Assembly: GCA_041649755.1 (NCBI GenBank)
Contig: JBAZMK010000004.1
Coordinates: 19,766-83,765 of the forward strand
Length of the DNA: 64,000 nucleotides
Source of the DNA: Candidatus Pacearchaeota archaeon
Lineage (GTDB): Archaea > Nanobdellota > Nanobdellia > Pacearchaeales > GW2011-AR1
Direction: 5' to 3'
The notes under the pieces were generated by a model. The model worked only from the letters and a program-made list of their open reading frames with translations. It had not been told where the DNA came from and made no database searches. The position numbers were made by a program, and so were the translations under genes. Below, piece after piece: positions 6,521 to 62,662 of the stretch (the first letter of the stretch is position 1; every line of letters starts with the position of its first letter).

Positions 6521-6521
6521 T

Positions 6522-43321: not shown

Positions 43322-43945
43322 ATGTTATTTTTTAATATGGGTCTTACTCCAGAACAGGCAGAAGCAATAAAAGAACATTTATTGGTTCAACTTTCTAAAT
43401 TTCCTGAAGAGAAGAGAGAGATTATCAAAGAGAAAGTTGAGTCAATGACTCCTGAACAAGTGGAGAGTTTTGTTGAGCAAAATAATCTTGTTCATTTAGG
43501 GGCTAAGGGTAACTGTATTTTTTGTCTTATTGTCAATGGGGAGAGTCCGTCTTTTAAAATTGCGGAAGATAATGAGAACGTTGCTGTTCTTGAAATTAAT
43601 CCTCTCAGTAAAGGGCATACTCTTGTTATTCCGAAGAATCATTTAGGGGAGATTTCTTTTTCTACGAAAGAGTTTGGGAAAATAGTTGTAGATAGGTTAA
43701 AGAGTACTTTTTCTCCTCTAGAGATTAAAATTGGTGAGAAAGAAATTATGGGCCATGCAATTTTGGAGATAATTCCTATTTACGGCGACGAGACTCAGAG
43801 GAAGCCAGCTGATGTAACTGAACTTAAGAAGATTCAGCAGGAGATAAGAAATCCGCTCAAATTAGAGAATGTAGAAGTTAAACGTGAAGAAAAGGTTGAA
43901 GATAAAGAAGAAATTTACAGGGCTAAACCACGTATTCCTAATTAA
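43322..43945 (+). CDS. HIT-family (histidine triad) protein with N-terminal helical extension
   Basis: CIFCLIVNGESPSFKIAEDNENVAVLEINPLSKGHTLVIPKNH. The triad region is degenerate (GHAILEIIP). Confidence 0.7.
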   Translation: MLFFNMGLTPEQAEAIKEHLLVQLSKFPEEKREIIKEKVESMTPEQVESFVEQNNLVHLGAKGNCIFCLIVNGESPSFKIAEDNENVAVLEINPLSKGHTLVIPKNHLGEISFSTKEFGKIVVDRLKSTFSPLEIKIGEKEIMGHAILEIIPIYGDETQRKPADVTELKKIQQEIRNPLKLENVEVKREEKVEDKEEIYRAKPRIPN

Positions 43946-44750
43946 AGAGTGTTCTTAATAAAGCATATAGAATAAAAGCCATTAAAAAGGCCGGAACGAA
44001 TGGCAGGCCTTCTTTTATTTTAACTTTTTTCTTTTTGCTGAGTAATCTTACTTCTTCTTTACTCAGTCCCTCCCAAGAGTAGTTTATGACTTTTTTACCT
44101 ATTCTCTCTTTGTCAGCAAGCCAGTCTCCTTCTCTTAGGTCTTTTCCAGAAATTGTTTTCGTCATAGAGATATTTTCTAATCCTTTTGCGAATATGTAAA
44201 GCAGGGGAGAGATAAAAATAATTATAGAGAGTAGTTTAAAAATTAAAGAATTGCTTAGGAAATAAAATGCTACACTAATTATAGGGATTGCTAAAAGAAT
44301 TTTTTTGTGTTTTTTGATACCTTTTTTTATCTCTTTGTTTACTTTTTCTCTGTTTTTTATGTAAAGTATTGAGGAGTAGATTGTTCCGTAAATAGAACCA
44401 GAGACCATTAGAAATAAAATAAATATCCCAATATTTGTTGCACTCTCTATGAATTCCACTCCGATAAAAAAAGCACTCATTGCGAAAAGAAGTCCTGCGT
44501 CTCCTCCACCGAAAACTCTTCCATAATAAAAAATATTCATTATGACGAACATTATCGCTATTATGAATCCTGTGAGGAGTATTATTTCTGGGTTTTTTTC
44601 ATAGAGGGCTTTGTAGAATACATAAGAGAGGCTGATTAGGATTAAAAGTAAATTAAGCCAGTTGTCCACTTCTCTTCTTTTTAAATCCTGAAATGTTGCA
44701 ACCAAAATACCAATTAGAAAAAGCCAGAAGAGAAAGGTCAGTTCAATCAT
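43938..44750 (-). CDS. A24-family prepilin/preflagellin aspartyl peptidase
   Basis: First catalytic Asp context TFQDLKRREVDNWL, second in GGGDAGLLFAM; polytopic; extra C-terminal soluble domain. Terminal gene of the pilin array. Confidence 0.8.
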   Translation of the reverse strand: MIELTFLFWLFLIGILVATFQDLKRREVDNWLNLLLILISLSYVFYKALYEKNPEIILLTGFIIAIMFVIMNIFYYGRVFGGGDAGLLFAMSAFFIGVEFIESATNIGIFILFLMVSGSIYGTIYSSILYIKNREKVNKEIKKGIKKHKKILLAIPIISVAFYFLSNSLIFKLLSIIIFISPLLYIFAKGLENISMTKTISGKDLREGDWLADKERIGKKVINYSWEGLSKEEVRLLSKKKKVKIKEGLPFVPAFLMAFILYALLRTLFN

Positions 44751-44874
44751 TTTTTTTACCTTTTTCTGTTACATTTTGTGATCTAAACTTTCCGCCTTTT
44801 TTGTAACCTCTGGCTATTCTTTTTCTTTTCAAATCTTTCTTTGTTCTCCTTCTGTCTACACCACCATAATCCAT
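44743..44874 (-). CDS. Possible 43-aa highly basic micro-protein (not in ORF track)
   Basis: Own translation: MDYGGVDRRRTKKDLKRKRIARGYKKGGKFRSQNVTEKGKKND. Its ATG overlaps the stop of the upstream gene (TAATG) and its 3' end overlaps the first 8 nt of the peptidase gene, so it fills the only gap between them. Confidence 0.3.
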   Translation of the reverse strand: MDYGGVDRRRTKKDLKRKRIARGYKKGGKFRSQNVTEKGKKND

Positions 44875-45425
44875 TATTTTTCTCCTATGATAAATTTATT
44901 TTCTTTGAAACTTATTAAATATGTCTTACTTGTTGTGAAAGAAACTTCCACCGGGAAGTTTATTTTGTTTTCTTTCTTCGCGTTTAAATATTTTCTCTTT
45001 TCTAATTTTGCGCGATTAAGAATGATTGTTTTTTCTTTTTCGTTGTATTCTGCAGAGTAAATACTTTTAATGAAGTCTTCTTCGTTTGCTCTTGCTTCAT
45101 TTTCGTATATATAATCTTTGAATAAAAATTCTTTCATTTGCTCTTCCGACTTTATCTTTTTTATGAGTTCATTTGTGAATTGTTGTGTGAAGGTATCACT
45201 TATTTCAAATGTATTTTTAGTTTCTTTTAATGTTTCTAAAATTATTTCTTTTTCTCTTATTTCAAAAAGTTCTAAATCGTCTCTTAGTTCTAAAATAGTA
45301 TTTGGCGAGACAAGAGAACTACGAGCCTCTGATTGCTGGACAAAGTAGGTGTAGATAATAAAGGCGCATAAGAAACCCATAAAAACTACAAGATAGATTT
45401 CAAAGAATTGTCCTTTATTTTTCAT
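44874..45425 (-). CDS. Pilin-like protein (class III signal: MKNKGQ-FFEIYLVVFMGFL)
   Basis: Short basic leader ending KGQ, then a hydrophobic helix; overlaps the upstream gene by 11 nt. Confidence 0.55.
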   Translation of the reverse strand: MKNKGQFFEIYLVVFMGFLCAFIIYTYFVQQSEARSSLVSPNTILELRDDLELFEIREKEIILETLKETKNTFEISDTFTQQFTNELIKKIKSEEQMKEFLFKDYIYENEARANEEDFIKSIYSAEYNEKEKTIILNRAKLEKRKYLNAKKENKINFPVEVSFTTSKTYLISFKENKFIIGEK

Positions 45426-45690
45426 AGTTAGCCTCCTTTATCGCGTTTTCTAATGAAAATCCTTTGTTTATGAAGAATCTTATTTTTGTAAGACCGAGAT
45501 ATTTAATCATATATTCTTGTATATTGTCAAGGTCTAAGTCGGCAGAGGTATAAATTTTTAGTCCCGCGTTTGAATTATCAATTTCTTTTATTGTAGAGGA
45601 ACTTATCACAAAAATTAGTAAGATAATTACTATGGCAATTGTTGCGATGAACAGTGTGAAAGTTTTTCCAATAACTGCCTTATTATTCAT
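45415..45690 (-). CDS. Pilin-like protein (MNNKA-VIGKTFTLFIATIAIVIILLIF)
   Basis: Leader and hydrophobic helix similar to the next gene (KKAVMGETVF); overlapping gene boundaries. Confidence 0.5.
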   Translation of the reverse strand: MNNKAVIGKTFTLFIATIAIVIILLIFVISSSTIKEIDNSNAGLKIYTSADLDLDNIQEYMIKYLGLTKIRFFINKGFSLENAIKEANYEK

Positions 45691-46171
45691 TTACTAAAAC
45701 CTCCACTTTCATTATTATTTCTTCTCCGTTATTCTTGTTATATAAGGGGTATTCTGAAAGATAGTATCCTGGGGCGTATTTTTCTATTGATTTGACGTTT
45801 TCTTTTTGTTTTTCATAGAGGTCTTTTACCCACATTGCTCCGTCGTCTCCCTGATAGACGCTTTTTATGATGTTGCCAGAGTTATCCAAAAAATTTACTT
45901 TGACGAAGAACCTTTCTATTTCTTTTTCTTCATATCCGCAAAAGGACAGGACTTTTCTTTCTTCAACTTCTTCAAAGTTTTTTTCTTCTAATGTGAAGCA
46001 ATCTGCTATCTGGCGAGTCATGATTAAGGCTTCAGCAGGTCTTACTAAAATATAATGTGAATAAAAAACAGAGGAAACGCCTAGAACTGCTAGGGCGATG
46101 AGAGTTATTAAAATGAGGCGATACATCATGAAGACTGTTTCACCCATCACGGCTTTTTTATTTGACTTCAT
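45683..46171 (-). CDS. Pilin-like protein (MKSNKKA-VMGETVFMMYRLILITLIALAVL)
   Basis: Basic leader plus hydrophobic helix; 4-nt overlap with the upstream gene. Confidence 0.5.
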   Translation of the reverse strand: MKSNKKAVMGETVFMMYRLILITLIALAVLGVSSVFYSHYILVRPAEALIMTRQIADCFTLEEKNFEEVEERKVLSFCGYEEKEIERFFVKVNFLDNSGNIIKSVYQGDDGAMWVKDLYEKQKENVKSIEKYAPGYYLSEYPLYNKNNGEEIIMKVEVLVNE

Positions 46172-46518
46172 TCTATTTTTATGATGAATTTATTTGGAGT
46201 TTCTTCTATGTTAACAGAATATTTTGTGAAATAAGGATAGCCGTTAAAAGAAGTCAGACCTTCAATTTCTATATAGATTCTTCCGTCTTTTAATTCTATT
46301 TTCCGAATTATCCCATTTATGTTATCCTTAGATATTTCTATGTTTGTATAGGGGATTGCAGAGTCTATTAGTAAGGCTGTTTGTTTTTCTAAGACCTGCT
46401 GACGAACCCCTCTTGCATTAATCTTTTCTGAGGTCGCCATGAAGAAAATTGCTAAAATTAATCCGGCTAATATGATATGGATTATAACTTCGTGCATAAT
46501 CTCAGCTCTTTTTTTCAT
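46168..46518 (-). CDS. Pilin-like protein (MKKRA-EIMHEVIIHIILAGLILAIFF)
   Basis: Leader KKRA followed by E....E and a hydrophobic helix; same signature as the 47482 and 47376 genes. Confidence 0.55.
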   Translation of the reverse strand: MKKRAEIMHEVIIHIILAGLILAIFFMATSEKINARGVRQQVLEKQTALLIDSAIPYTNIEISKDNINGIIRKIELKDGRIYIEIEGLTSFNGYPYFTKYSVNIEETPNKFIIKIE

Positions 46519-46552
46519 GTTTTAATAAATAGAGTAGCGTTAATAAAATTAT

Positions 46553-47356
46553 CTAAGCAGGGATTGTAAGGAATTCACAATCCAATTCATTAATTTTGTC
46601 TTTTGGTATAAGCAAGATATATTTGTATTCTTTATCTTCCTCTCCAATTAACCTTGAAAGATAGTTAATTATGTTTTCCCCTAAAATTCCTTTAAGTAAA
46701 CTTATTACTCTTGCGGTTTTTCCAGTTACATAGACTGCCATAAGGTCATTGTCATTAGGATAGAATTTTACTTCATTGTCAACTGCTACAAAGTTCTCGG
46801 GGAGTTCTCCTTCTTCTGATTTTAGATAAAGGGGGAGGTAAGAATTGTAAACATTTCCTGAGTTTTTTTCTTTGCTTGTGCGATAATATTTTGCGAAGCT
46901 TTCTATTGAAAAATCGTTTTCGTTGTAATTTTCTCTTGATTTAGGAGTGTAACTAATTCTTGCAAAAACCATACAGTAAGAGTTTCCTGATAAGAATTTT
47001 TTTGGCACAATATCAAATTCTCCTTCTCCAAATAGATTCCAACCAGCGTAGAGGGTGTCCGAAATTTTTTTATAAACTTTCTCAGGCTTTGCGGTATCTA
47101 TGGTTACAACTTCTGTTTTGCATTTTAAAGGAAAAGCGTCTTTCAAATCTGCTAGTGAAATGTCGCCAGATTTAAATTCGGGAGATATTGAACGGAGATA
47201 GATACTCTGCCTGCATTCCTGCCAGTTAAGTTCGTCCGAAGATATATATGAAAAGATGTAGTTAAAAGAGATAGACAGGACTAGAAGCCCTAGTATCAGA
47301 GAGATTATTATATAATATTTCCCTGAACCTTTTTTTTCCATTTTAGGATTAAACAA
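46553..47356 (-). CDS. Pilin-like / N-terminally anchored protein (..MEKKG-SGKYYIIISLILGLLVLSI)
   Basis: KKG leader and hydrophobic helix, 267 aa with a Cys-containing globular part. Confidence 0.45.
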   Translation of the reverse strand: MFNPKMEKKGSGKYYIIISLILGLLVLSISFNYIFSYISSDELNWQECRQSIYLRSISPEFKSGDISLADLKDAFPLKCKTEVVTIDTAKPEKVYKKISDTLYAGWNLFGEGEFDIVPKKFLSGNSYCMVFARISYTPKSRENYNENDFSIESFAKYYRTSKEKNSGNVYNSYLPLYLKSEEGELPENFVAVDNEVKFYPNDNDLMAVYVTGKTARVISLLKGILGENIINYLSRLIGEEDKEYKYILLIPKDKINELDCEFLTIPA

Positions 47357-47375
47357 AAAGGATTAATAAAAGTAT

Positions 47376-47498
47376 CTAAGCAAGGTTACCTACAATTTTG
47401 TATACAGAAAAACTAACAGCTGTTAAGAGGGCTATGTAGAGAATCCACTTTATTATCTCTTCGGAAGTTATGTGGGCTTTTTTATTCTTGTATGACAT
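47376..47498 (-). CDS. 40-aa mini-pilin-like ORF (not in ORF track)
   Basis: Own translation: MSYKNKKAHITSEEIIKWILYIALLTAVSFSVYKIVGNLA. The leader NKKA-HITSEEII mirrors NKKA-ELTTHEIL of the upstream gene and KKRA-EIMHEVII of 46168-46518. It overlaps the 3' end of the 161-aa gene by 17 nt. Confidence 0.45.
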   Translation of the reverse strand: MSYKNKKAHITSEEIIKWILYIALLTAVSFSVYKIVGNLA

Positions 47499-47967
47499 GG
47501 TAAAAATTTTCACTAGGTAATTTAATTATTCTTACTTCTTCGTTTAATCCTAAATGGAACTGGTTGTATTGTTCATCTTTTTTTAGGGGGTATTTTAGAT
47601 TCTCGCAGTAGTTGCAAAAGGTTTCTTGGTCTTTTGTATAACATAGACAGATATGGTTTGAGTTTTCTCCTATGGAAAAGAATTCTTGAGAGTCTTTTTC
47701 GTAAGAGATTGTTGTTCCAAAATATATTAAGAAGTAATTTACTTCTTTTTCCGGCTGCCAAATTTTGAAGATTCCTGTTCCGCCTTTTTCGGCAGTTTCA
47801 ACAGACTCCTTAAACGAATTAAAATAAGACTCGGCGGTTTTTTCTTCAACATTAAATTTTGGTGAGATTAGGTTGTATAATAAAATTGCGACAACTGTTA
47901 TTCCTGCTATTGCTAAGATTAGTTCTAAGATTTCATGAGTGGTTAATTCTGCTTTTTTATTTAACAT
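47482..47967 (-). CDS. Pilin-like protein (MLNKKA-ELTTHEILELILAIAGITVVAILL)
   Basis: Basic leader plus hydrophobic helix; Cys-containing C-domain; 7-nt overlap with the upstream gene. Confidence 0.55.
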   Translation of the reverse strand: MLNKKAELTTHEILELILAIAGITVVAILLYNLISPKFNVEEKTAESYFNSFKESVETAEKGGTGIFKIWQPEKEVNYFLIYFGTTISYEKDSQEFFSIGENSNHICLCYTKDQETFCNYCENLKYPLKKDEQYNQFHLGLNEEVRIIKLPSENFYHVIQE

Positions 47968-49187
47968 CTTTTCTTTAGATAGTCATATACTAAATTTAAT
48001 TTTTTAATGTCCTCCCATTCTTCATCATTTATAGACATAAATTCATCATATTCAGATATAGTGAATCCGCCATTGGAGTTTTCTTTTACTAAGTGCAATT
48101 CCCCGTCATAATAAAGACCGAACTTTTCTTCTGCCGTTTCAAAATAAAATATTTGGTATTGATATTTGCCTATTATAGATTTGATAATCTTGTAGTCTAA
48201 ATTTTTGCCATCAAAATAAATGAGGACGCTGTTTGGGTTTTCTTTTAGTAAATTAATTCCATCTTTTTGTCTTGTTAAGTTTCTGTCCCATTCATTCAGT
48301 TTTCTAATAATCCATATTCTAAATTCTTCTGCGCTTTCTGTTGGTTTTGGAGCGAGAAATCCCCCTCCAGATTTTCCAAGTTCTTCTGAGAGTGGTTTTT
48401 TCCATCCGTCATTTTCTCCGTTTTCTTCTAATTTGTATCTCCAAGAAACTTTGTTTCCATTTATGAAAGAGTTTTCTAAGTCTTCTAAGATTCCGCTTTC
48501 AGGATTTGTTGTATACCTTCCGTAGAATAAAGTCCATTTTTCTCCATCCCATCTATAAGTCTTGTCCGGGCTCCAAATTTTGAACTCTAGATAATTATTC
48601 GGTAAAAATCCTAAGATGTCTTGCAACTTGTTGTAATCTTTTATCTTATAGAGAGACTCGTAGTCTTCATCACTTCCTATTCCTAATGCTCCGTTAAATG
48701 AAGTTATTAGTGTCTTGTAAGCTTCCCTTTCTTTTTCAACTTTTGTTAAGTCTTCTAAAGGGATAATGTTTTCATCTTCACAGAATTCTTTTTGGTCTTT
48801 TGTTTTTAGCAAGAATTTGCAATCTACCTTGTCTCTTTTAAATGTCCTTTCTCCTAATGCTAATCTGAAAGAATTCATTTTTATAGTGTTACCAATCGGT
48901 TCCTCCAGACTTATATTACATTCTGTTTTGCAGAGGGTTAAGAGTCCCGCTCCAATATCTTCTATGTTTGTTCCCCCATAGATACATTCTGTTTCATAAG
49001 GGTCATCCGTTCCAGCGAGTTTATTTAAAAGTATTAAAACTTCGTCGAATTTCCCCCCAGTTTTTTCCAATAAAGGTACTAGTTGTCCACTAATAAGACC
49101 TGAAATAATTAAGATTATAATTATAATAACAAGAATTAAAGAGAATACTTTTCCAAAAGTCCAGTCAATAGAACTTTTTTTTTGCAT
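47961..49187 (-). CDS. Large N-terminally anchored pilus-associated protein (tip/adhesin candidate)
   Basis: MQKKSSIDWTFGKVFSLILVIIIIILIISGL, then a 370-aa Cys/W-rich ectodomain. Its ATG overlaps the stop of the 48-aa ORF (TAATG). Confidence 0.5.
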   Translation of the reverse strand: MQKKSSIDWTFGKVFSLILVIIIIILIISGLISGQLVPLLEKTGGKFDEVLILLNKLAGTDDPYETECIYGGTNIEDIGAGLLTLCKTECNISLEEPIGNTIKMNSFRLALGERTFKRDKVDCKFLLKTKDQKEFCEDENIIPLEDLTKVEKEREAYKTLITSFNGALGIGSDEDYESLYKIKDYNKLQDILGFLPNNYLEFKIWSPDKTYRWDGEKWTLFYGRYTTNPESGILEDLENSFINGNKVSWRYKLEENGENDGWKKPLSEELGKSGGGFLAPKPTESAEEFRIWIIRKLNEWDRNLTRQKDGINLLKENPNSVLIYFDGKNLDYKIIKSIIGKYQYQIFYFETAEEKFGLYYDGELHLVKENSNGGFTISEYDEFMSINDEEWEDIKKLNLVYDYLKKRC

Positions 49188-49333
49188 TATTTTCCAAACC
49201 TCATTAAGTTTCTTATAGCTTCTAAGACTTCACTCCCTTTTCCGCTAAGAAGGAAGATAACTCCAAAAATGAGAACTACTAATATAATCACCGCAATAAT
49301 AATTTTACCTATTTCACTTGTCGCCTCTGTCAT
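49187..49333 (-). CDS. 48-aa single-helix membrane micro-protein (not in ORF track)
   Basis: Own codon-by-codon translation: MTEATSEIGKIIIAVIILVVLIFGVIFLLSGKGSEVLEAIRNLMRFGK. It fills the gap between the 117-aa pilin and the 408-aa gene, and its stop overlaps the next ATG. Confidence 0.4.
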   Translation of the reverse strand: MTEATSEIGKIIIAVIILVVLIFGVIFLLSGKGSEVLEAIRNLMRFGK

Positions 49334-49376
49334 ATACTAAATATAAAATAGAACTTAATAAAGATTTTGGAGGGGA

Positions 49377-49730
49377 TTAACAGTTAAACTTATTGCACGG
49401 ACTTGCTACTCCTGCAGGAATCTTCTTACCTTGGTCTCCAGTTACTAGCTCATTACAGGTTGTTGTGATTGCATCGTCTTTTTCATTGAAAACTACGCTT
49501 CTTTCTTGTGTGCAGAAGGCATAACTATTTCCTTGTTCACAAGCTAAGACGCAGGCAGTCCTAATTGTGTCAACGTTAACTTTTCCTCCGCCGAGACCAG
49601 TTACTCTCTGCCATAGGTTCCCCCAACCAGTGCTAAATCCGTAGATGAGGAATATCAAAACAACGACACCGAGAACGATTAGTATAATTGTTCCGAGAGT
49701 TAGTTCTTGTCCTTTTTTATCACCCTTCAT
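49377..49730 (-). CDS. Candidate major pilin (class III signal MKGDKKGQ-ELTLGTIILIVLGVVVLIFLIYGF)
   Basis: The KGQ leader resembles the archaeal class III signal (KGQ.S.E). Small (117 aa), six Cys in the globular head, first gene after the platform protein. Confidence 0.6.
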   Translation of the reverse strand: MKGDKKGQELTLGTIILIVLGVVVLIFLIYGFSTGWGNLWQRVTGLGGGKVNVDTIRTACVLACEQGNSYAFCTQERSVVFNEKDDAITTTCNELVTGDQGKKIPAGVASPCNKFNC

Positions 49731-49761
49731 ATTTTTCTTAATGCCTTCTTATTTATAAATG

Positions 49762-51918
49762 TTATGCTAATCCGGAGAGGGCTATAGAACCTATGAGGCT
49801 AAGTCCTACAATAGATAAGAGTGCCACGATGAAATAGAGGGTCATTGTTTTTTTGAGGTTTTTTCCAGTTTCCGCGGTGGTTTGGAGTTCGTCTTTTCCA
49901 GATTTTATTGTTACAAGGGTTGAAGTTAATATGAAGACGATTTCGATTAAATAGAAACCGATGACTATCTGGAGCCAGTAAGTTGGAATCATTAGAACAG
50001 GGTCAAAGAAGCCTAAAAGCCCTGTTATTCCTTCTGCACCGAGCAGTTCTTCGCTTCCCACGCCAGATTCCATCATCGCAGAGATTGAGCCAAGTATACT
50101 AGAAATCATTCCAGAGAGTCCGAGAATTATTCCGGAAAGGAGCGGAGCCAGGAAAGTCATATTGGATTTCATGTCCGAAGTTATTTCTGCTAGTAAATCG
50201 TTTAGTCTGTCGTTAATTTTTCTGATGTTTTTTACGTAATCGCTTATAGACATTAAGCTTCTTGCGGCGACATTTAGACCTTTTTTCACAGATTCTACTA
50301 AAATCTTCATTGAAGTTGCGATGATTTGAGAAGGATAGAAAATTATAGCTCCTCTTCGCGGGTCGAATAGTGCTCTTTCAAGATTCATTCCGAGTTGTTG
50401 TATATTTTCATTTACAATTTTGAAGAAGCCTTCAGTGGAAGTTCCTTTAGTTGATTCGCTTACTTTTGAGAAGGCGATTTCTGCGGGGAGTCCATCACCC
50501 AGTCGGTTTCCTAACTGGAACAGGGAGGAAGTAAATTCTTTTTCTACGTTTTTGTATTCTTCTCTTGATTTTATTAGTTCTTTTGTCTTTGTTTTGAACG
50601 CCACAATGAATATTATGGCTATAGATATTGGAATAAAAAGACTTAGAATTAGTGATAGGGTTCCTGAGGGTCCGTATAAAACTCCGTTAGGTCCCACAAT
50701 TCCAAAAATTCCAGAAGAGCCCATAAATCCAAGACCTATTTGTTCCCAAGTGTAATCTCTTGCTAACCCAAGCCATATTGGCAGGTTTGTGTAACGCCAG
50801 AAGAAAGGGATAAGTCCGAGAAGTAAAAAAGGCAGACCTAAGATGAAACCTGTAAAATAGGGCTTGTTGCTTTTATATTGGGAGTATAATGGATTTTTTT
50901 CAAGAAGAGTTGCTTCCCCGTATCCACCAGGTCTTTTCATTAAGACTCCCCAAGTAAGATATAGAACCATAAAAGGGATAATTAAGTTGAAAATTACAAA
51001 TAAGTGATACCATTTTATTGAGCCCCCCATCATCGTTGAGGCTAAGGGTAGAATTGCTAGTGCGAGTGTTGGAAGAACAATCCCCAGCATGTAGATATTG
51101 GTAAGTGGGGAGCGGACTTCGTGGGTGTATTTGAGCATTTTGTCATAAACTCCATCGAGTATTACCTGCAATGATTTTTCTAAGATATTTATTCTTCTAA
51201 GTTCGTCAGGTTCGTAAAGGCTGGATTCAACAAGATGAAGAGATTCAATAAATTCCATACTGTAATCTTTCCATCCAAGAAGATAATTGTCCAGACTTTC
51301 TTTTAATGTGGAGAATCTTCCAATTTCTACGTCCCAAAAGATTTTTTTAAAATCCAGAGAAAGTGGTGGCTGGAGGTGGTCAGAGGCAAATGAAATGGCC
51401 TTTTCAAAGTTTGAGGTATGTTTCATATAGATTACTATATACAAAATTGCTGGAACCATTTGACTGCTTGCTTTGAGACGCCATTTCATTGCGAGTCTTT
51501 CGGGAGTTTTTGAAGAGTAAAAGAAAAGGAAGACTGCAAGGATGAAAACTAGAAATAAAAACATAAAAGAGAATGTTTCTGTAATCATCCAAATTGCAGT
51601 AAAAAATAGAGCTCCGCCGAATAAAATGAGAAATAATATAACGGTGGACAGAACGAGCACTTCTGAAGGAGTTATATTTAAATGAGCTATTTCAATTGCT
51701 TTTGAGATTCTATTTTTGTCTTTTTCTCCAACTTTTATTCTGAATAAACTACCAAGACTTTTACACCATTTTTCATATTTTGTAAATTCAGGAGACATTT
51801 CTTCTCTGAATTTTTCATAACTTTTACTATATTTTTGTGATGAATTAGAGTCGTAACCCTTCATCTGTTTTTCTATTTTAGAACTATATCTTCTTAATAT
51901 TTCATCTGTGCTCGTCAT
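49762..51918 (-). CDS. Polytopic membrane platform protein, T2SS-F / FlaJ / TadC-like (two repeats)
   Basis: 718 aa with two units of cytoplasmic helical domain followed by TM helices. First unit: ERLAMKWRLKASSQMVPAILYIVIYMKHTSNFEKAISFASDHL..PLSLDFKKI..DVEIG. Second unit: FTSSLFQLGNRLGDGLPAEIAFSKVSEST...LERALFD. This matches the T2SS-F domain organisation. Assigned by pattern, not by search. Confidence 0.6.
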   Translation of the reverse strand: MTSTDEILRRYSSKIEKQMKGYDSNSSQKYSKSYEKFREEMSPEFTKYEKWCKSLGSLFRIKVGEKDKNRISKAIEIAHLNITPSEVLVLSTVILFLILFGGALFFTAIWMITETFSFMFLFLVFILAVFLFFYSSKTPERLAMKWRLKASSQMVPAILYIVIYMKHTSNFEKAISFASDHLQPPLSLDFKKIFWDVEIGRFSTLKESLDNYLLGWKDYSMEFIESLHLVESSLYEPDELRRINILEKSLQVILDGVYDKMLKYTHEVRSPLTNIYMLGIVLPTLALAILPLASTMMGGSIKWYHLFVIFNLIIPFMVLYLTWGVLMKRPGGYGEATLLEKNPLYSQYKSNKPYFTGFILGLPFLLLGLIPFFWRYTNLPIWLGLARDYTWEQIGLGFMGSSGIFGIVGPNGVLYGPSGTLSLILSLFIPISIAIIFIVAFKTKTKELIKSREEYKNVEKEFTSSLFQLGNRLGDGLPAEIAFSKVSESTKGTSTEGFFKIVNENIQQLGMNLERALFDPRRGAIIFYPSQIIATSMKILVESVKKGLNVAARSLMSISDYVKNIRKINDRLNDLLAEITSDMKSNMTFLAPLLSGIILGLSGMISSILGSISAMMESGVGSEELLGAEGITGLLGFFDPVLMIPTYWLQIVIGFYLIEIVFILTSTLVTIKSGKDELQTTAETGKNLKKTMTLYFIVALLSIVGLSLIGSIALSGLA

Positions 51919-52006
51919 TTTCCCCCAACCTCTAAGATATTATCAAAGGGGACTTTATATTTTTAATGTTAGTCATTAATTATGGGTTATTTGTTGTTAA
52001 TTATAT

Positions 52007-52933
52007 TTAAGGAATAATTCTAAATCTTAAAGTATATAAAATCCAAGATATTGAGAGTAGAATAATTACTCCAATAAGAAAGTATAAGCTTAAATCTATA
52101 GATACTTCTTTTCTTGTTTGGATGATTATCTCCTCAAACGAGCTCCTTAGCTCTTCGGGATTTTCTGCCATAAAGAACTGCCCGTTGCTGTTAAAACTTA
52201 TTGCCTTTAAAAAATCTTCATCTATCTTTGAAATCATATTAAGTCCTTCAACAACCCCCCCTTCTATGGTTCCGACTCCGATAGTGTTAACTATAATATT
52301 GTTCCTGTTAAGATATCTTATAACTTCAGGAGCTTCGACGACATTTAATTGTCCGTCGCTTATCAGAATCACCGCTTTCATCTGCCTGTTTTGGAAAATA
52401 TTGTTAGCAGTAATTAGGGCGTTATGGACGTTTGTTCCTGAGACTTCTCCAAAATTGATGGCGTCAATTGCAAGTTTTGTTTTTATTTTTGAGGTGTCAA
52501 GTATCTGATGAACTTTAGACTCTCCAGAAAAGCTTATAACTCCTATTTCGACACCCGTAGGGAGCATGTCAATGAACCTTTTTGCTTCTTCTTTGGCAAC
52601 AGATAATCTGTTTGGCAATAAGTCATGCGCAGACATACTCTGAGAGTTATCTATTAAGATTACATAAGAGAATGAACTTGTATCTGTTTCGACTGAGACT
52701 CCGATTCCTGCAAGTGCAAAGACAATTAGTATGAGGATTATTAAGTGAATATAAAGAAGAGCGAGATTCTTTGAAAAGAATTCAATTCCATAGAATCTTT
52801 GCATAGCCTTGAAGTTTGAAAACATTAGGGCTTTTTTTCTTGTGTAAATCATTCCATAAAAGTGGATAAAAATAAAAAAAGGGACGAGAAAAAGGAAGAC
52901 AAGTAATTGGGGATAAAGAAAATAGAATTCCAT
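52007..52933 (-). CDS. vWA-domain membrane protein (BatA-like)
   Basis: N-terminal two TM helices, MIDAS motif VILIDNSQSMS, a vWA fold pattern and a C-terminal TM. Confidence 0.8.
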   Translation of the reverse strand: MEFYFLYPQLLVFLFLVPFFIFIHFYGMIYTRKKALMFSNFKAMQRFYGIEFFSKNLALLYIHLIILILIVFALAGIGVSVETDTSSFSYVILIDNSQSMSAHDLLPNRLSVAKEEAKRFIDMLPTGVEIGVISFSGESKVHQILDTSKIKTKLAIDAINFGEVSGTNVHNALITANNIFQNRQMKAVILISDGQLNVVEAPEVIRYLNRNNIIVNTIGVGTIEGGVVEGLNMISKIDEDFLKAISFNSNGQFFMAENPEELRSSFEEIIIQTRKEVSIDLSLYFLIGVIILLSISWILYTLRFRIIP

Positions 52934-53847
52934 TATACTCTACCCCCCCGAGATCTTCCTTTTAGAAATTTTACTGTTGGTGGGACGAATTTTTCCTGTA
53001 TATTTAGTTCAAGCAAATCCGTCTTTGATCTTTTAAAGATATCCCTTATCAATTCTTTTTGTTTTGCTACACTTTCTTCATATTTTTTCGTTGTTATGCT
53101 GGGATCAAGAGTCATTTGTCTTTTTGAGTGTGGGTCCTGAATAGAAATCTGGAAGGGTAGGTCATCTAAAGATTCGTCTAATGAGTCTCTTATCATAATA
53201 GCCATAGTTTCGAATCTACTCCCAAGAATCTTGATAATAGTTTCATCTTCCTTTTTCAAATTTATAAAGTCAGATATTACTATGAAGATTGTGTAGGCAG
53301 ATTTGGTGAACTTAAGGACTTCCATTATTGTTTTCTCTAAATTAAACCCTCCACCATAATATTTTGGATCAGAAAGAAATTTTGTAAATAATAGAAACTG
53401 GTTTTTACTATTTGAAGGGTAGAGAATTTTTTTAGGGCCGTCATTAAACATAACTAATCCTATCTTGTCGCCAGAACTATAAATTAGGTGAGCGATTGAG
53501 GCAACTATCTCTGCCGAATATTCTGCCTTGAGTTTTTCTCCTGAGCCGAAGAGCATACCATTACTGACATCTACCAGAAAGTATATGCTCAAATCTCTTT
53601 CTTCAATGTATTTTTTTGCAAGAGTTTCGTTTGCCCTTAAGGTTGCTTTCCAATCAATCATAGAAGTATCGTCGCTTGGTTCAAAAGTTCTGTAACTATC
53701 AAATTCCAAACCTTTTCCTCTAAAAATCATATTATATAAAATTCTTTTAACTGGGAATTTCTGAAATGCTTTCTCAAATTCAGAGATGGCTCTTGCAAAG
53801 TTGATGTCAAATTTCTTTTTTTCGTTTAAGTTTTTTAGTGCTTCCAT
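52933..53847 (-). CDS. DUF58 family protein (MoxR-associated, vWA-like)
   Basis: FRGKGLEFDSYRTFEPSDDTSMIDWKATLR....AKKYIEERDLSIYFLVDVSNGM is the classic DUF58 signature; 1-nt overlap with the vWA gene. Confidence 0.85.
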   Translation of the reverse strand: MEALKNLNEKKKFDINFARAISEFEKAFQKFPVKRILYNMIFRGKGLEFDSYRTFEPSDDTSMIDWKATLRANETLAKKYIEERDLSIYFLVDVSNGMLFGSGEKLKAEYSAEIVASIAHLIYSSGDKIGLVMFNDGPKKILYPSNSKNQFLLFTKFLSDPKYYGGGFNLEKTIMEVLKFTKSAYTIFIVISDFINLKKEDETIIKILGSRFETMAIMIRDSLDESLDDLPFQISIQDPHSKRQMTLDPSITTKKYEESVAKQKELIRDIFKRSKTDLLELNIQEKFVPPTVKFLKGRSRGGRV

Positions 53848-53851
53848 TATT

Positions 53852-54820
53852 TTAAGGAGCCGTTACTTTTTGAAGAATATGTTTTATTACTTCGTCCGTT
53901 GTTATTTTTTCAGCTTCGGCTTCGTAATTTAGTATTATTCTATGTCTTAGAATAGGATAAACGACAGTTTTGACATCCTGAGGTATGACATATTTTCTTC
54001 CTTTCATCATAGCTTCTGCTTTTGATGCAATATAAAGGGAAATTGACGCTCTTGGGCTTGCACCGCAGGAAATGTATTTAGAGAATTCTTCGTCTTTTTT
54101 TCTTGTGTAGCCCACTATTTTTATAATATAATTTTTTATTGCTTCTGAGGCAAATATCTCTTTTGTTTTTTCTTGTAAAGCAATTATTTTTTTAGGGGAT
54201 AATATTCCATTTAAATCATAGTCTTCGAATTTTTTTGTTGTTACGTTGTTTTCTAGTATTTTCTTCTCCTCTTTTTCGTGAGGGTAGTTTACAATTAGCT
54301 TAAATAGAAACCTATCTACTTGTGCTTCCGGAAGGGAGTAGACTCCGCTTACTTCTAATGGGTTTTCAGTCGCCATTACGAAGAAGGGTTTGGGGAGTTC
54401 GTAAGTTTCTCTGGCGATTGTTACAGCTTTTTCCTGCATGGCTTCTAGAAGGGCAGATTGTGTTTTTGGCGGACTTCTGTTTATTTCATCAGCAATTACA
54501 AAATTAGAGAATATTGGTCCTTTTATTACTTCAAAGCCCTTTTTAGGTGTGTAGCTCATAATACCCGTTATATCTGTTGGAAGAAGGTCAACAGTAAACT
54601 GGATTCTTTTCATTTCACATCCAGTAACTTTTGCAAATGCTTTGACTAATAATGTTTTTGCGGTTCCAGGGACCCCTTCAACGAGAACGTGACCATCACA
54701 TAGGATAGCTCTTATGATTTCGTGAATGACTTCTTCTTGACCAACTACTACTTTTGATACTTCTTTTTTTATCTTTTCTACAATTTCCTTTACACTTTCT
54801 TCTTTCCTCTTTTTTTTCAT
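53852..54820 (-). CDS. MoxR-family AAA+ ATPase
   Basis: VVGQEEVIHEIIRAILCDGHVLVEGVPGTAKTLLVKAFAK, Walker B ADEINR.PPKTQSALLEAMQE, and a C-terminal lid. Confidence 0.9.
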   Translation of the reverse strand: MKKKRKEESVKEIVEKIKKEVSKVVVGQEEVIHEIIRAILCDGHVLVEGVPGTAKTLLVKAFAKVTGCEMKRIQFTVDLLPTDITGIMSYTPKKGFEVIKGPIFSNFVIADEINRSPPKTQSALLEAMQEKAVTIARETYELPKPFFVMATENPLEVSGVYSLPEAQVDRFLFKLIVNYPHEKEEKKILENNVTTKKFEDYDLNGILSPKKIIALQEKTKEIFASEAIKNYIIKIVGYTRKKDEEFSKYISCGASPRASISLYIASKAEAMMKGRKYVIPQDVKTVVYPILRHRIILNYEAEAEKITTDEVIKHILQKVTAP

Positions 54821-54829
54821 GTTTTTGTC

Positions 54830-57800
54830 TTATTTATTAAATCTTGTACGTTTATAAATGTAAATGATAAATCCGAGTAGAAGTACTGAGGCGGTTGCAA
54901 ATAAAACGTAATAAAAAATGTTGCTTATATAATCTTTTAGTTTGAATTTTACTTGTTCATTGGCTTTAATGGCGTCTTCACAGGCTGTAGCGATTTCAGT
55001 AGCCATAGTTAATGCGCTTTCTGAGTCTCCTTCTTCAAATTTTTTTCTTGCTTCTTTGATTAGTTCAGAAAGTTCAAGGCACTCTGGATTTTCTGAAATT
55101 AGTTTTTCCGTGAAAATAATTGTTTGTTCAGCTTCAGTGTCGTTAATTCTTCTTAGGTCTATAAAGAAGTCCCCCCAGTCTGAGAATTTTGGGGAGGTTA
55201 CATCAACATAGACTGTTGCTTTATATCTCCCTGTCTTTTGTGTATCTGCTAAGATTCTCATAGTCATATTTTGGGACTCTCCGATTTTTAGTTCGGGAAG
55301 ATAGATTGGTTCAATGAATACTTTTACATCTTCTGAGTAGACATTGTTAAATAAGACGATGTTTGTTACGTCAAGTCCTTTTAAGTCAATTTCACCTGTA
55401 TTTTCTAAGGTAAATGGGATTTCAATAGAGTCTTTTTCATAAATAATTATATCTTGTGGTACGATTATTCTTATTGAAAAGAGTTTTAGGAGGGTTGATG
55501 TACCGCCCGTGGCTGGTCTTTCTACTTCCTGAACCGAAGGGGTAGTGAATTCCACTTTAAATTGGTTGCTTATGTTGTTTGTTAGGGGTTCCCCTTCTGA
55601 ATTTAAATCTGTTGCATTAATGTAAAGCCATTCGCTTTTTATTGTGTTTGGTGCAGGAATTGTTAGAATCCATCCTTCTGAAACTGTTGAGAATGGCGAG
55701 GCGAGTGTGCTTGGTGTGCTGTTACTATGAATCGTGAAGTTAATTTCCTGTTCGTAATAAGGGTCTTCTTTGTCGTAGTCTAAAAAGTGTCCGTTTAGGT
55801 CAATTTCAAGGTTTTGGTTATAGTTTTTTTGATAGTAAGGACCTATGTTAGAAATGAAGAGTAGAGGGGCATTAGTGTGACTTATGTTTAATTTAAATGA
55901 AAAGTTAATCGCTATTGCTTCTTTTTGGCTTTCGTTTAATTGTTCTGTTGAAGGATATGCTTTTATTGTCAAGTTTTTTAAATTTCCATAGGTTTCGTCA
56001 AAATAGGTTTGAGTCCACGAATAGTTAAATTCGGTGGAGTTTCCAATGTTTTCAAAAGAGTCTATCATATAGAAATCTGTGTAGTTGCAGTTGGAATTGT
56101 CTAAGTAGCTACAAGTTATGTTATCTATCCAGAGTTCGTAAGTTAGGTTTCCCCCTAATGAATTATTGAAAGATAGTGTTAATTTTTTTTCTACGACTTC
56201 GGTGAAGTTAAAGACAGAGTTTTGCGAAGGAGATGTTAGATTGGCTATTCCATATATAGATAATTTAAAAATTTTCCAGTCTGTGTTTTCAGAAGTGTCG
56301 TTTACAGATATATTAAACAGCCATTCTCCTTCATAATCACTTAAGTTTGTTAAATTAATTATTCCGGTTGTTTCGTTGAAATTAGAAGTGTTTATGAAGT
56401 TTCCTCCCGTTGTTAGATTTGAAATTGAGAATGTTAAATTTCCATTTGGGGTGTCGTTTCCATCTTTTTCGTCTGTTGCATTTATATCTAAATATAAATT
56501 CTCGTAAATAGTGAGGGTCGCATTGTTTAGGCTTTCGTTTACAATAGAGGGGGGATAGTCAAATTCTGTTATGTTCAGATAGAAAAGCCTGTTTGTTTTT
56601 TCTCCAGAGAAATCTGTTATAGTGATGTTGACTGAATAATTCCCTACATTTTCGTATTGGGGAGTAAAGGTTGTGTTGTATATTGTCCTGTTGTAGAATC
56701 CTTCCAATTCTCTTGGAGATTGTTCAATTAAAAAAGAGATGTCTTCTGAGGTTAGAGGTGTTTGGGCAGGAGTTAGGTTAATTATATTAGTTGAAATGTT
56801 TAAAGTTTCATTGTAAGCACCTTCGTTTACTTTTGTTTCGCTTATTAAGAAGTCGTCGTCGTAAGTATATAGTCTCCAAAATATTGATTCTCCGTGCGGA
56901 ACGATTTGTGTGTTGTTTTCAGGTATTGCGTTTGTAGGAGGCTCAGAAAAGTCTGTATTGTTGTAAAGGGCACCGATTTGCGGAGCGGTGTTGTTGTTAG
57001 AAATATTTAAGATAATGTGGGTTGTATCCTCTAAATAACCATCGCTTGCAGTTATGTTGAAGTTCCAAATTCCGACATCTTGCTTCCATGGGGTGAAATT
57101 TATTATCCCGTCACTTGTCAGATTAAATCTTGGCGGGACTCCTGATGAATTTGAGAATGTTAAGGTGTCGTTATCATCATCTTTGACGTAGAAATTTTCT
57201 TCAGTAATAGTCGTATCAGTTAGATTTCGGTAAAAGTTAAATCCTTCTTCATCTGAGGTTCTACTAGTGTTTAGATCAAAAGCGTATTCACCCCCTTTCC
57301 AGTAAGGAGAGGTGTTGTTAGAGATTGTTATATTAAATAAGGTATAGGAAGAGGAGTCTTCTTTGTCAGTTGCACTTACATTAATTTCGTAATCTCCTGC
57401 TTCGGTTGAATTTAGTGTTATTTTTGCTCTTGAAATATTTGTTCCTGTAATTTGACCTAAGTCTTCAATGACTAAATTATCAAAAGTGTAATTTTCAGAT
57501 TCTATTGATGCAGTGTAGTTTAGGGTGAATTCTTCGTTGAAAAGGTTTTTGTCAGGAATTAATAAATCGTTGTCGGAGATGTTAAAGTAAATTGTTACCA
57601 ATTGGTTTATTGATATGTTTCTGTTTTCTATGCTTGTCAGAGACAGGGGGGAGTTTACAGAGCTTCTGTTTATGAATATGTCTATTTGTGATGAGCTTTC
57701 CTGTGAGTATTTGGTGTCTTCTACGCTGAAATTGATTGTCCAGTTTCCGACGTGGACTTTTTCCAGGGAGATGTTTATTGGTATAAAAAGGTAAAAGTCT

Positions 57801-58834
57801 GCTGCATTTGTTTCGTTTGAAGCGTAGAACCATCCCGAGTTGAAACTTCCTGAAGGGGCCGATGGATAATTTTTTAGTGTTGCAGTGCTTTCAATTGAAA
57901 GGCTGTCATTTTTCCCCTGTGTTTTTATTATGATGTTACAGGTTAGGTAGTCGTCATCTTCCGAAATTATTTTTTCGTCGCAGTCTGAGGTGTCTACACT
58001 TAGGGTAGATTGGATTATTAGAGAGGCGTTTTCGCAGGTTGTTTTGTTGTATTCGTAGTTTGAATCTTTATATGTTGGTAGTCCTGATTCTGGCAAAGTG
58101 TCGTTGATGCAGATTTGTACTGGGTAAACTCCGACGTCGTAATAGCCTATGTTTGTGAGGTTTATTAAAACGGACTGGTCTGAACCGCCATATTCGTTTG
58201 TTGTATCATAGGTGAAACTGCAGTTTGAAGCGTTTTTTCTTGGGCTCCATTCTGCCGGCTCGCAGTCGTCAAAAAAAGTGATATTTTGAAAAATTAAAGG
58301 GTAGTGTTCTTCTTCGTCTGTTCCTGATAATATAATATTGCCAGAGGTGTTTTCCTGGCTGTTTACTTCAAAAGAGTATGTTTCGTTGAAGCCTACTTCG
58401 GGGGCGTCGTTTGTTGCGTTAATTATGAAATTAAAGTATCTTGATTCTCCTCCTTCTGTACCTTGAACGAGGGCGTTAAGTGTAAAGTTTCCAGTTTCAT
58501 TATCATTTATCGAATTGATATTTAATAATCCTGATGTTGAATTTATAGAGTATGTATCGTTCCAGTTTAACCAGTAAAAGTCTGAGTGTTCTGGTCCAAG
58601 GGAGCCGTCTTCCCATTGGATATTAAGTATAGAAAAATAGCTAAAATTTTCTGTTTCAGTGAGATTTTTACTAAAGTTATATAAATTAAATTCATCTTCG
58701 TTGAAATATTTGGGCGTTTGATATGCATCATTCCAACTGACGGCGCTGACAAATACAATTATTCCTAATAAGATACATAAAAGAATGCTTTTAAAGTATT
58801 GTCTCTTAATTGTATTTGTTACACCTCTCTTCAT
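54830..58834 (-). CDS. Giant (1334 aa) N-x-S/T-rich surface adhesin with cadherin-like repeat junctions, a CARDB-like domain and a C-terminal TM anchor
   Basis: N-terminal signal/TM. Repeat junctions NATNDAPEV, ISNNNTAPQI, ISNNTSPYW and EFDYPPSI resemble cadherin-type D.ND.AP motifs. A CARDB-like segment starts near EIPFTLENTGEIDLKGLDV. The C-terminal TM is YYVLFATASVLLLGFIIYIY followed by KRTRFNK. Confidence 0.7.
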   Translation of the reverse strand: MKRGVTNTIKRQYFKSILLCILLGIIVFVSAVSWNDAYQTPKYFNEDEFNLYNFSKNLTETENFSYFSILNIQWEDGSLGPEHSDFYWLNWNDTYSINSTSGLLNINSINDNETGNFTLNALVQGTEGGESRYFNFIINATNDAPEVGFNETYSFEVNSQENTSGNIILSGTDEEEHYPLIFQNITFFDDCEPAEWSPRKNASNCSFTYDTTNEYGGSDQSVLINLTNIGYYDVGVYPVQICINDTLPESGLPTYKDSNYEYNKTTCENASLIIQSTLSVDTSDCDEKIISEDDDYLTCNIIIKTQGKNDSLSIESTATLKNYPSAPSGSFNSGWFYASNETNAADFYLFIPINISLEKVHVGNWTINFSVEDTKYSQESSSQIDIFINRSSVNSPLSLTSIENRNISINQLVTIYFNISDNDLLIPDKNLFNEEFTLNYTASIESENYTFDNLVIEDLGQITGTNISRAKITLNSTEAGDYEINVSATDKEDSSSYTLFNITISNNTSPYWKGGEYAFDLNTSRTSDEEGFNFYRNLTDTTITEENFYVKDDDNDTLTFSNSSGVPPRFNLTSDGIINFTPWKQDVGIWNFNITASDGYLEDTTHIILNISNNNTAPQIGALYNNTDFSEPPTNAIPENNTQIVPHGESIFWRLYTYDDDFLISETKVNEGAYNETLNISTNIINLTPAQTPLTSEDISFLIEQSPRELEGFYNRTIYNTTFTPQYENVGNYSVNITITDFSGEKTNRLFYLNITEFDYPPSIVNESLNNATLTIYENLYLDINATDEKDGNDTPNGNLTFSISNLTTGGNFINTSNFNETTGIINLTNLSDYEGEWLFNISVNDTSENTDWKIFKLSIYGIANLTSPSQNSVFNFTEVVEKKLTLSFNNSLGGNLTYELWIDNITCSYLDNSNCNYTDFYMIDSFENIGNSTEFNYSWTQTYFDETYGNLKNLTIKAYPSTEQLNESQKEAIAINFSFKLNISHTNAPLLFISNIGPYYQKNYNQNLEIDLNGHFLDYDKEDPYYEQEINFTIHSNSTPSTLASPFSTVSEGWILTIPAPNTIKSEWLYINATDLNSEGEPLTNNISNQFKVEFTTPSVQEVERPATGGTSTLLKLFSIRIIVPQDIIIYEKDSIEIPFTLENTGEIDLKGLDVTNIVLFNNVYSEDVKVFIEPIYLPELKIGESQNMTMRILADTQKTGRYKATVYVDVTSPKFSDWGDFFIDLRRINDTEAEQTIIFTEKLISENPECLELSELIKEARKKFEEGDSESALTMATEIATACEDAIKANEQVKFKLKDYISNIFYYVLFATASVLLLGFIIYIYKRTRFNK

Positions 58835-60792: not shown

Positions 60793-61137
60793 TTATTTGG
60801 TTTTTGCATTAGTTAATATATCTTTTACATTTTCATTTAGCTTAGGAATTTTTTCCTTTATCAACTTCCAAATTATTTCCTTATTCACTCCAAAATAAGT
60901 ATGGCTGATGATATTTCTAAGTTTAGATAATTTTATCCATTCTATCTCTTTATGGTTTTTTCTTAATTCAATGGGGATATGTTTTATAGATTCTCCGATA
61001 ACTTGAAGCCTCATTAGAGTAGCGTCCCAAACCTCGCTTCTTTTTTCAAAATTTTCTTTTGTAATGTTTTTTGTTGAATCAATTATTCTTTGTGATGCAT
61101 CAAGAATATCTTTAAGATAAATTTTATAGTCTAACAT
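60793..61137 (-). CDS. hepT: HepT-type (DUF86, HEPN) toxin
   Basis: R.4-H.Y motif in LRNIISHTYFGV; 114 aa; overlaps the upstream MNT gene by 14 nt. Confidence 0.85.
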   Translation of the reverse strand: MLDYKIYLKDILDASQRIIDSTKNITKENFEKRSEVWDATLMRLQVIGESIKHIPIELRKNHKEIEWIKLSKLRNIISHTYFGVNKEIIWKLIKEKIPKLNENVKDILTNAKTK

Positions 61138-62549: not shown

Positions 62550-62662
62550 AAAAGTTTAGGAAAAGTATTAGTGTGGCTAAAACAAAGATTATTTAAATAA
62601 GGGTTCTATTGATATTTTGGGGTGGTAGTACCTCAAGATACTCAATTCTTGAAGAAATTAAA

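Follow-up and report, generated by a model that had tools for sequence, protein, structure and literature searches.

Does an archaeal operon that encodes a membrane platform, a series of pilin-like subunits and a prepilin peptidase, and no assembly ATPase, represent a filament machine without a motor? The question is raised by a 64-kb stretch of Pacearchaeota DNA (hereafter the window; bases 19780–83779 of the 93,083-bp contig ERZ27247363:k141_317092), in which the original prediction, made from the sequence alone, recognized such an operon on the minus strand at positions 43938–51918. Both Pacearchaeota and Woesearchaeota have small genomes and are abundant and uncultured, and to our knowledge nobody knows how they contact their hosts. 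Our analysis indicates with high probability that the region, from a member of the Pacearchaeota (DPANN), is the platform–pilins–peptidase operon of a pilus-like machine that constitutes a complete archaeal type IV filament system, and that the ATPase gene of this machine lies 63 kb away after a rearrangement. The four core components of the type IV filament superfamily (ATPase, platform, A24 peptidase and subunits with class III leaders) are all present on the contig, which was covered in full by four fetched pieces that tile its 93,083 bp with no mismatches.

Examination of the open reading frames (ORFs) listed for the 42–54 kb interval established that the operon consists of 13 co-directional, tightly packed ORFs, all on the minus strand and all intact, numbered here g01 to g13 in operon order. 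A 718-aa platform protein comes first, followed by nine leader-bearing proteins and two micro-proteins, and an A24 prepilin peptidase closes the series. Neighboring genes share a single nucleotide in TAATG overlaps at 49187 and 44874, and overlap further at 47482–47498 (17 nt), 47961–47967 (7 nt), 46168–46171 (4 nt), 45683–45690 (8 nt) and 45415–45425 (11 nt). All of these junctions had been quoted in the original prediction, as had eight leader sequences, and all were recovered; an additional overlap exists at 44743–44750 (8 nt), and the other intergenic gaps are 19–43 nt long. The public gene calls for the contig give the same 13 genes, and the order from g01 to g13 is conserved in relatives whose platform proteins are at least 67% identical. 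An AT-rich spacer of 88 nt (51919–52006, minus strand) lies upstream of the platform gene. It contains a TATA-like ttaaatata and, in front of the ATG, a run of GGGGG, and probably carries the promoter and the ribosome-binding site of the operon.

The statement that no assembly ATPase is encoded holds for the window and does not extend to the contig. A tblastn search of the 64 kb with an orthologous ATPase as query (E<=1e-5) found no T2SSE ATPase, and a Walker A scan of the window returned only unrelated P-loop proteins, for example Cdc6-like and FtsY proteins, as well as a MoxR protein identified by Pfam. These results could be taken to mean that the operon is truly ATPase-less or orphaned, having no dedicated motor, using a borrowed one or belonging to a decaying locus, since the platform gene is flanked in the window by 44 kb of downstream and 12 kb of upstream sequence devoid of any T2SSE gene. 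However, a search with the ATPase of a related locus (L005) revealed an intact orthologue on the same contig. This protein (P0126), which is 755 aa long and 78% identical to the query, is encoded on the minus strand at record positions 4316–6583, 13.2 kb before the start of the window and 62,958 bp from the platform gene. It is named a Pacearchaeota type II/IV secretion ATPase at NCBI, matches Pfam T2SSE with 57.2 bits, and retains intact Walker A (GTRSSGKT), Asp box (VEDTLE), Walker B (LIVGEIR) and His box (TIHG) motifs. The apparent absence of the ATPase is thus explained by the boundary of the window combined with a genome rearrangement, and the apparent oddity of an ATPase-less operon does not hold at the genome level. 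The absence of a partner gene from a window, and even from 10-kb flanks, is weak evidence for its absence from a genome.

The arrangement from which the split locus departed can be seen in the orthologous loci of 80 species-representative genomes that served as our comparison set. In 65 of these loci no more than 10 kb separates the ATPase gene from the platform gene; in 55 the two share a strand and the ATPase gene comes 5' of the platform gene, the median gap being 837 bp. Among loci whose platform proteins are 80% (L005), 75% (L006) and 69% (L001) identical to that of the window, the ATPases are 755, 756 and 763 aa long and are encoded 1.6, 0.5 and 6.4 kb 5' of the platform gene, respectively. 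Fifteen loci have no nearby ATPase gene; 12 of them have less than 2.5 kb of 5' sequence, and only three of the 80 (L024, L039 and L042) truly lack an ATPase gene within 8–10 kb. The last three are the remaining observation in favor of a motorless operon.

The region 5' of the ATPase gene on our contig contains the same genes as in L006, namely an ERCC4 nuclease, a helicase, three paralogous membrane proteins and two coiled-coil proteins; therefore the ATPase side has kept its neighbors and lost the operon. Beside the ATPase gene, outside the window, there is a tyrosine recombinase gene (L091:13170–14021). Its product is 65% identical to that of a gene located directly 5' of the platform gene in another locus (L033:623–1270), and is 66% identical, with 44% in a second segment, to a copy lying between the ATPase and platform genes (L005:5176–5679); both of these copies are truncated. 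Because orthologues of the recombinase occupy the spacer between ATPase and platform genes, the break is placed beside the recombinase gene, which marks the breakpoint of the split locus. A further locus with 92% platform identity (L093) has the same split arrangement, in which MoxR, DUF58 and VWA genes are followed by the platform gene, and its genes are intact. The split has therefore been fixed in a small clade and is not an assembly error. Together with the intact orthologous ATPase, the 13 intact ORFs out of 13, the platform identity of 55–92% and the 375 stretches in species-representative genomes that encode a relative of the platform, this common and undamaged arrangement leaves very little probability for an operon lacking a motor.

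Several genes 5' of the ATPase gene are retained in conserved synteny (L091:6918–9913 and L006:4043–7124). They encode three paralogous polytopic membrane proteins of 167, 178 and 159 aa, along with a protein of 96 aa and a divergently transcribed pair of coiled-coil proteins, 233 and 132 aa long, and they may represent accessory components of the filament machine. Three homologues of the ATPase (P0193, P0224 and P0237) are enlarged to approximately 1265 aa and contain intein and homing-endonuclease domains (PF14890 and PF14528).

The identity of the 718-aa protein (g01; 49762–51918, minus strand) as a platform composed of two fused T2SSF/TadC/FlaJ-like units is supported by profile matches of its family, by an internal repeat and by a predicted model. 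The family is large: more than 4000 homologues were found, the top 120 of which are all at least 67% identical, and clustering at 50% left 1035 representatives. The range of 55–92% given above covers the related genomes and metagenome contigs examined. From this family an alignment (A1) of 54 diverse full-length members was prepared, and 26 of the 54 individually matched Pfam T2SSF, some of them above its cut-off of 25.2 bits and the best with an E-value of 3.2e-10. The above-cut-off matches fall either in the N-terminal half (around residues 137–280) or in the C-terminal half (around 458–608) of the family members, as illustrated by one protein matched at 138–270 (P0388, 32.8 bits), another at 458–587 (P0335, 32.1 bits) and a third with an N-terminal match in two stretches (P0381, 30.4 bits). 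Three members taken at random had no T2SSF match, and ten more distant members were informative. When the N-terminal half of the family alignment was compared with its C-terminal half by hhalign, 145 columns aligned in register with an E-value of 0.0021, consistent with two repeated units.

An AlphaFold model of the platform built on A1 (predicted local distance difference test score [pLDDT] 88.1, predicted template modelling score [pTM] 0.85) was compared with solved structures using Foldseek. The cytoplasmic domains of OutF (5NBG) and EpsF (2VMA, 2VMB and 3C1Q) were matched with probabilities of 0.99–1.00, target template modelling (TM) scores of 0.67–0.74 and root-mean-square deviations of about 3 Å, and a PilC model ranked fourth. 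A search of PDB sequences with the platform profile likewise placed GspF first, although only marginally. Whole-chain E-values in this comparison all exceeded 0.1, because the PDB holds only domain fragments, and domain-level matches were used instead. The one half-length platform match that was looked up is a fragment on a 1-kb contig and is uninformative on split, two-gene platforms. The original prediction of two T2SSF-like units had been tied to a hit with the T2SSF profile or to fold similarity; a direct profile match of the 718-aa protein is absent, and the assignment stands nevertheless because the homologues match the profile and the fold is similar (TM-scores of 0.70–0.74).

At the opposite end of the operon, g13 (43938–44750, minus strand) encodes a protein of 270 aa that matches Pfam Peptidase_A24 (PF01478) with 36.7 bits, above the cut-off of 26.5 bits. 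Its two catalytic aspartate motifs, QD (residues 21–22; D22) and GGGD (81–84; D84), both align with those of FlaK (3S0X), in agreement with its original assignment as an A24 aspartyl prepilin (class III signal) peptidase.

The nearest NCBIfam match of the peptidase is FlaK_Arch (E 1.9e-6), and homologues of the ATPase are found in public sources under the name "archaeal flagellar protein FlaI". At the annotation level, "Pilus type IV (FlaIJK)" has been reported in DPANN genomes, and one paper lists flaI, flaJ and flaK in Woesearchaeota genomes. The locus might accordingly be read as an archaellum, a motility apparatus, as KEGG-style annotation with FlaI, FlaJ and FlaK suggests; indeed, the archaellum (FlaI/FlaJ/FlaK = ArlI/J/K) shares the same three core families. 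However, the FlaK match reaches only 27.6 bits against a cut-off of 330, and FlaI (E 1.8e-17) ranks only third among solved relatives of the ATPase, behind the Archaeoglobus fulgidus secretion ATPase, an archaeal GspE (2OAP, E 2.5e-29), and CpaF (E 1.4e-23). Furthermore, no archaellin, FlaF, FlaG, FlaH or FlaX/CDE domains were found in the operon products, in the flanks of the operon or in the genes flanking the ATPase. An archaellum is thus highly improbable here.

The proteins encoded between platform and peptidase were assigned as subunits by their N-termini. A purpose-written filter for class III leaders, which accepts [KR][GA] within the first 22 residues when a hydrophobic core with few charges follows, was run on every ORF in the six frames of the window. 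It accepted ten ORFs, and eight of these are located inside a 5.8-kb stretch of the operon, a clustering far beyond chance. Comparison of the orthologue N-termini, group by group, revealed a consensus common to nine groups (g02 and g04–g11), with mostly N at position –4, K at –3, K or R at –2 and G or A at –1 relative to the predicted cleavage site, then a few semi-polar residues and then a hydrophobic helix. Positions –3 and –4 were free in this comparison and were not imposed by the search. Outside the leader and helix, the proteins diverge, with median identities of 26–43%. About nine products therefore have leaders of the class III type that had been predicted, eight by the strict filter and a ninth in an atypical form.

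Could these N-termini be plain signal anchors, or Sec signals that resemble class III leaders, on otherwise unrelated membrane proteins? No pilin family is matched, and our filter also flagged a two-transmembrane protein elsewhere in the window. However, the N-K-[KR]-[GA] motif is maintained at a fixed distance from the helix in nine orthologue groups, over as many as 51 species, while the rest of each protein diverges; the genes share an operon with the platform and an A24 peptidase; and the one subunit that was modelled has a long N-terminal helix of the pilin kind. The chance that the leaders are fortuitous is slight. The subunits are pilin-like by N-terminus and context only: in agreement with the original observation that their globular parts fit no named pilin family, no Pfam or NCBIfam pilin or archaellin profile, including Class_IIIsignal (PF04021) and archaellin (PF01917), was matched at E<=1. 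A match of one subunit to UpsA is meaningless (10.7 bits against a cut-off of 130).

Two filter-positive ORFs are located outside the operon. One of them (2342–2578), of 78 aa, is the two-transmembrane protein mentioned above and was rejected as a pilin. The other (5012–6118, plus strand) encodes a protein of 368 aa with the N-terminus MKKG↓SLICIFVLIVILG (MKKG↓SLICIFVLIV, where the arrow here and below marks the predicted cleavage site) and a transmembrane segment at the C-terminus. It could be a further substrate of the peptidase or an ordinary Sec-secreted, anchored protein.

The best conserved pilin-like gene is g02 (49377–49730), which encodes a 117-aa protein with the leader MKGDKKG↓QELTLGTIILIV and is found in 53 of the 80 loci with a median identity of 43%. 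The K-[KR]-[GA] motif and hydrophobic stretch are present in all 51 orthologues with an aligned N-terminus, and in the alignment the 45 N-terminal residues are almost invariant, the C-terminus is variable and six cysteines are conserved. None of its 109 database homologues has a Pfam domain, and where annotated they are called "hypothetical", except for one evident misnomer. The AlphaFold model of this protein (pLDDT 79.7) has an N-terminal alpha-helix of 34 residues (12–45) and a small alpha/beta head. Because it is encoded by the first gene after the platform gene, is the best conserved subunit and is small, the 117-aa protein is likely to be the major pilin, and we regard it as a candidate for that role.

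The largest subunit of the operon is encoded by g04 (47961–49187). It is 408 aa long with the atypical leader MQKKS↓S, and has orthologues of approximately 400–607 aa that carry KKG↓S(V/I)(D/E)WT.GK. This gene is found in 17 loci, with a median identity of 32% and no Pfam match, and its product is a candidate adhesin or tip subunit. The next gene, g05 (47482–47967), encodes a 161-aa protein with the leader MLNKKA↓ELTTHEILELIL, the motif being present in 20 of 21 orthologues; it has no family match above threshold in Pfam. The shortest subunit, encoded by g06 (47376–47498), is a micro-protein of 40 aa known from the public gene call, with the leader MSYKNKKA↓HITSEEIIKWIL. It is found in 17 loci, 14 of which have the motif, and its mature part would be little more than a helix, 32 aa long once processed. 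For g07 (46553–47341; leader MEKKG↓SGKYYIIISLIL; motif in 29 of 31 orthologues) the public call gives 262 aa, and the ORF list extends the frame to a TTG start at 47356. The 116-aa product of g08 (46168–46518), with the leader MKKRA↓EIMHEVIIHIIL and the motif in 31 of 32 orthologues, has a conserved ARGV(R/K)QQVLEK after the helix. The three remaining pilin-like genes, g09 (45683–46171), g10 (45415–45690) and g11 (44874–45425), encode proteins of 162, 91 and 183 aa with the leaders MKSNKKA↓VMGETVF, MNNKA↓VIGKTFTLF and MKNKG↓QFFEIYLVV, and the motif is present in 22 of 26, 15 of 16 and 16 of 16 orthologues, respectively. Orthologues of the 183-aa protein mostly have Q at +1. All of these genes are on the minus strand.

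Gene content, leaders, peptidase and platform thus agree with the original reading of a type IV pilus-like operon, and a working scheme can be proposed. The nine prepilin-like proteins would enter the membrane via their N-terminal hydrophobic helices, and the A24 peptidase would cut each of them after the G or A of the N-K-[KR]-[GA] leader. The T2SSE ATPase would form a hexamer, dock on both of the platform's cytoplasmic T2SSF domains and drive extraction of the processed subunits from the membrane and their assembly into a helical filament. As the major subunit, the 117-aa protein would form the bulk of this filament, and the larger, fast-evolving proteins are likely to be minor or tip subunits that mediate adhesion. 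A rearrangement beside the tyrosine recombinase gene has separated the ATPase gene from the platform gene. The combination of a conserved motor with quickly diverging heads fits surface-exposed, partner-specific subunits, as judged from sequence comparison, and the filament may serve in cell–cell attachment.

The same machine might be real and not adhesive, for instance a short pseudopilus that secretes proteins, a DNA-uptake (competence-type) filament or a bindosome-like scavenger of host nutrients. A set of many minor subunits with one of 32 aa after processing would suit a pseudopilus or a machine of the Com or Tad kind as well, the ATPase is nearer to CpaF and archaeal GspE than to FlaI, and the literature describes reduced metabolism and dependence on outside supply in this group. 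In contrast, Pfam finds no substrate-binding-protein domains in the leader-bearing proteins, neither the operon nor its 10-kb flanks showed a gene of the DNA-receptor or ComEC type, and fast divergence of heads against a conserved motor is usual for surface-exposed, adhesive subunits. None of these three points is decisive, and we consider a non-adhesive machine improbable, while granting it a clearly larger share than the archaellum or plain-signal-anchor readings, which were ranked low, as was the bindosome.

As a complete type IV filament machine, the locus can be compared with several described systems. According to a preprint that classifies archaeal systems (Sivabalasarma & Albers 2026, bioRxiv 10.64898/2026.04.22.720090), type IV filament system 1, which has two platform genes, many pilins and a dedicated peptidase, occurs in methanogens and in DPANN, and some Nanoarchaeota have subsystem 4A. 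System 1, exemplified by the Epd pilus of Methanococcus maripaludis, has in common with our locus a cluster that includes platform function, many pilin-like subunits, a dedicated class III peptidase and an ATPase, as well as several subunits with Q at +1. In contrast to system 1, the locus studied here has one 718-aa platform protein with two T2SSF units in place of two genes, a 755-aa ATPase with approximately 200–400 residues before the conserved core, no subunit that matches Class_IIIsignal or any other pilin profile and, in the window genome, an ATPase gene unlinked from the operon.

The bacterial Tad/Flp system (CpaF/TadA, TadB plus TadC, and TadV/CpaA) likewise has two T2SSF platform units, a peptidase without a methyltransferase domain and an ATPase, CpaF, related to ours at the E-value given above. 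The 40-aa subunit, little more than a helix, is reminiscent of Flp, and some sources name the homologues TadB or TadA. However, no secretin or other outer-membrane part is found here, the leaders are of the archaeal K-K-G type and not the Flp G/XXXXEY type, and most subunits have globular heads. GspF, EpsF and OutF of type II secretion and PilC of the type IVa pilus share with the platform the cytoplasmic helical-bundle fold and a build of two repeats, whereas the platform of the window is about 300 aa longer, has more transmembrane helices and an extra region at approximately 330–420, and is too dissimilar in sequence to these proteins for a direct Pfam match. In contrast to the archaellum, there are no archaellins, FlaF, FlaG or FlaH, and the ATPase is nearer to GspE and CpaF. 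The locus thus resembles system 1 and also bacterial Tad.

Loci of this type are conserved in at least 375 species-level genomes, and their marks are a fused double-T2SSF platform that escapes direct detection by Pfam, an ATPase of 755 aa whose N-terminus bears a long extension, nine subunits with N-K-K-G leaders that fit no known pilin family, and a 43-aa basic micro-protein linked to the peptidase. It is conceivable, although we consider it rather unlikely, that this type of locus is an undescribed subtype of archaeal type IV filament and the host-attachment organelle of Pacearchaeota and Woesearchaeota. If so, the conservation of the motor as opposed to the fast evolution of the subunits would reflect host specificity.

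Several findings weigh against a complete type IV filament machine. Neither Pfam nor NCBIfam directly matches the 718-aa protein, and when the platform profile was compared with PDB sequences, GspF came first with a marginal E-value of 0.13. The pilin-like subunits have no pilin or archaellin profile match, as described above, and the head of the 117-aa protein, the one pilin that was modelled, has no fold match in the PDB (all Foldseek probabilities <=0.05). In the protein of 408 aa, the residue predicted at –1 is Ser and not Gly or Ala. The leader filter is home-made and is not FlaFind. The ATPase is no longer co-transcribed with the operon, and the view of the genome is limited to 93 kb of one contig, so that a second system may exist elsewhere.

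The comparison across species places the locus in a wider setting. In the 80 genomes the platform proteins are 55–85% identical and the ATPases approximately 55–84%, compared with approximately 28–63% for neighboring housekeeping genes in the same loci. The pilus locus is therefore among the best conserved gene sets of Pacearchaeota and Woesearchaeota, and that of the window is an ordinary member of a widespread, strongly conserved type IV filament system of these archaea, here with a split locus. Under standard annotation, 11 of the 13 operon products receive no name and the platform goes entirely undetected, which may explain the statement in one groundwater study that DPANN genomes lack components of type IV pili. 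The N-K-[KR]-[GA] leader and the platform alignment could serve in the proper annotation of such systems.

The operon also contains two micro-proteins without a recognized leader, neither of which has a Pfam match; the original prediction had not set them apart from the pilin-like products. The first, encoded by g03 (49187–49333, minus strand), is a single-transmembrane protein of 48 aa that lacks a basic leader and is not a pilin. It is present in 36 of the 80 loci, with the C-terminal motif SGKGG..L.SI.N.LRFG, and its gene usually lies right after that of the 117-aa protein and, in more distant relatives, right after the platform gene. It may be an accessory part of the machine. The second, encoded by g12 (44743–44874, minus strand), is a very basic protein of 43 aa (MDYGG.DRRRTKKDLKRKRLARGYKRGGKFR) found in 42 of the 80 loci with a median identity of 57%. 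Its gene is always located directly 5' of the peptidase gene, even in compact loci that consist of platform, g12 and peptidase.

Directly 5' of the platform gene, the window contains a block of minus-strand genes (52007–58834) for a MoxR AAA ATPase, a DUF58 protein, a membrane VWA protein and a protein of 1334 aa. The 1334-aa protein has an N-terminal hydrophobic segment and weak Ig/PKD-like matches, and is likely to be surface-exposed. This block is also present in L093 and in none of the 80 species loci. Further upstream (60793–61420, minus strand) there is a toxin–antitoxin pair of the HepT/MNT (nucleotidyltransferase) type. A cluster at 62609–63529 and beyond the window (L088:10001–20696) encodes three radical SAM proteins, of which one is fused to a methyltransferase, and is followed by a gene for a protein of 2154 aa that extends to the contig end.

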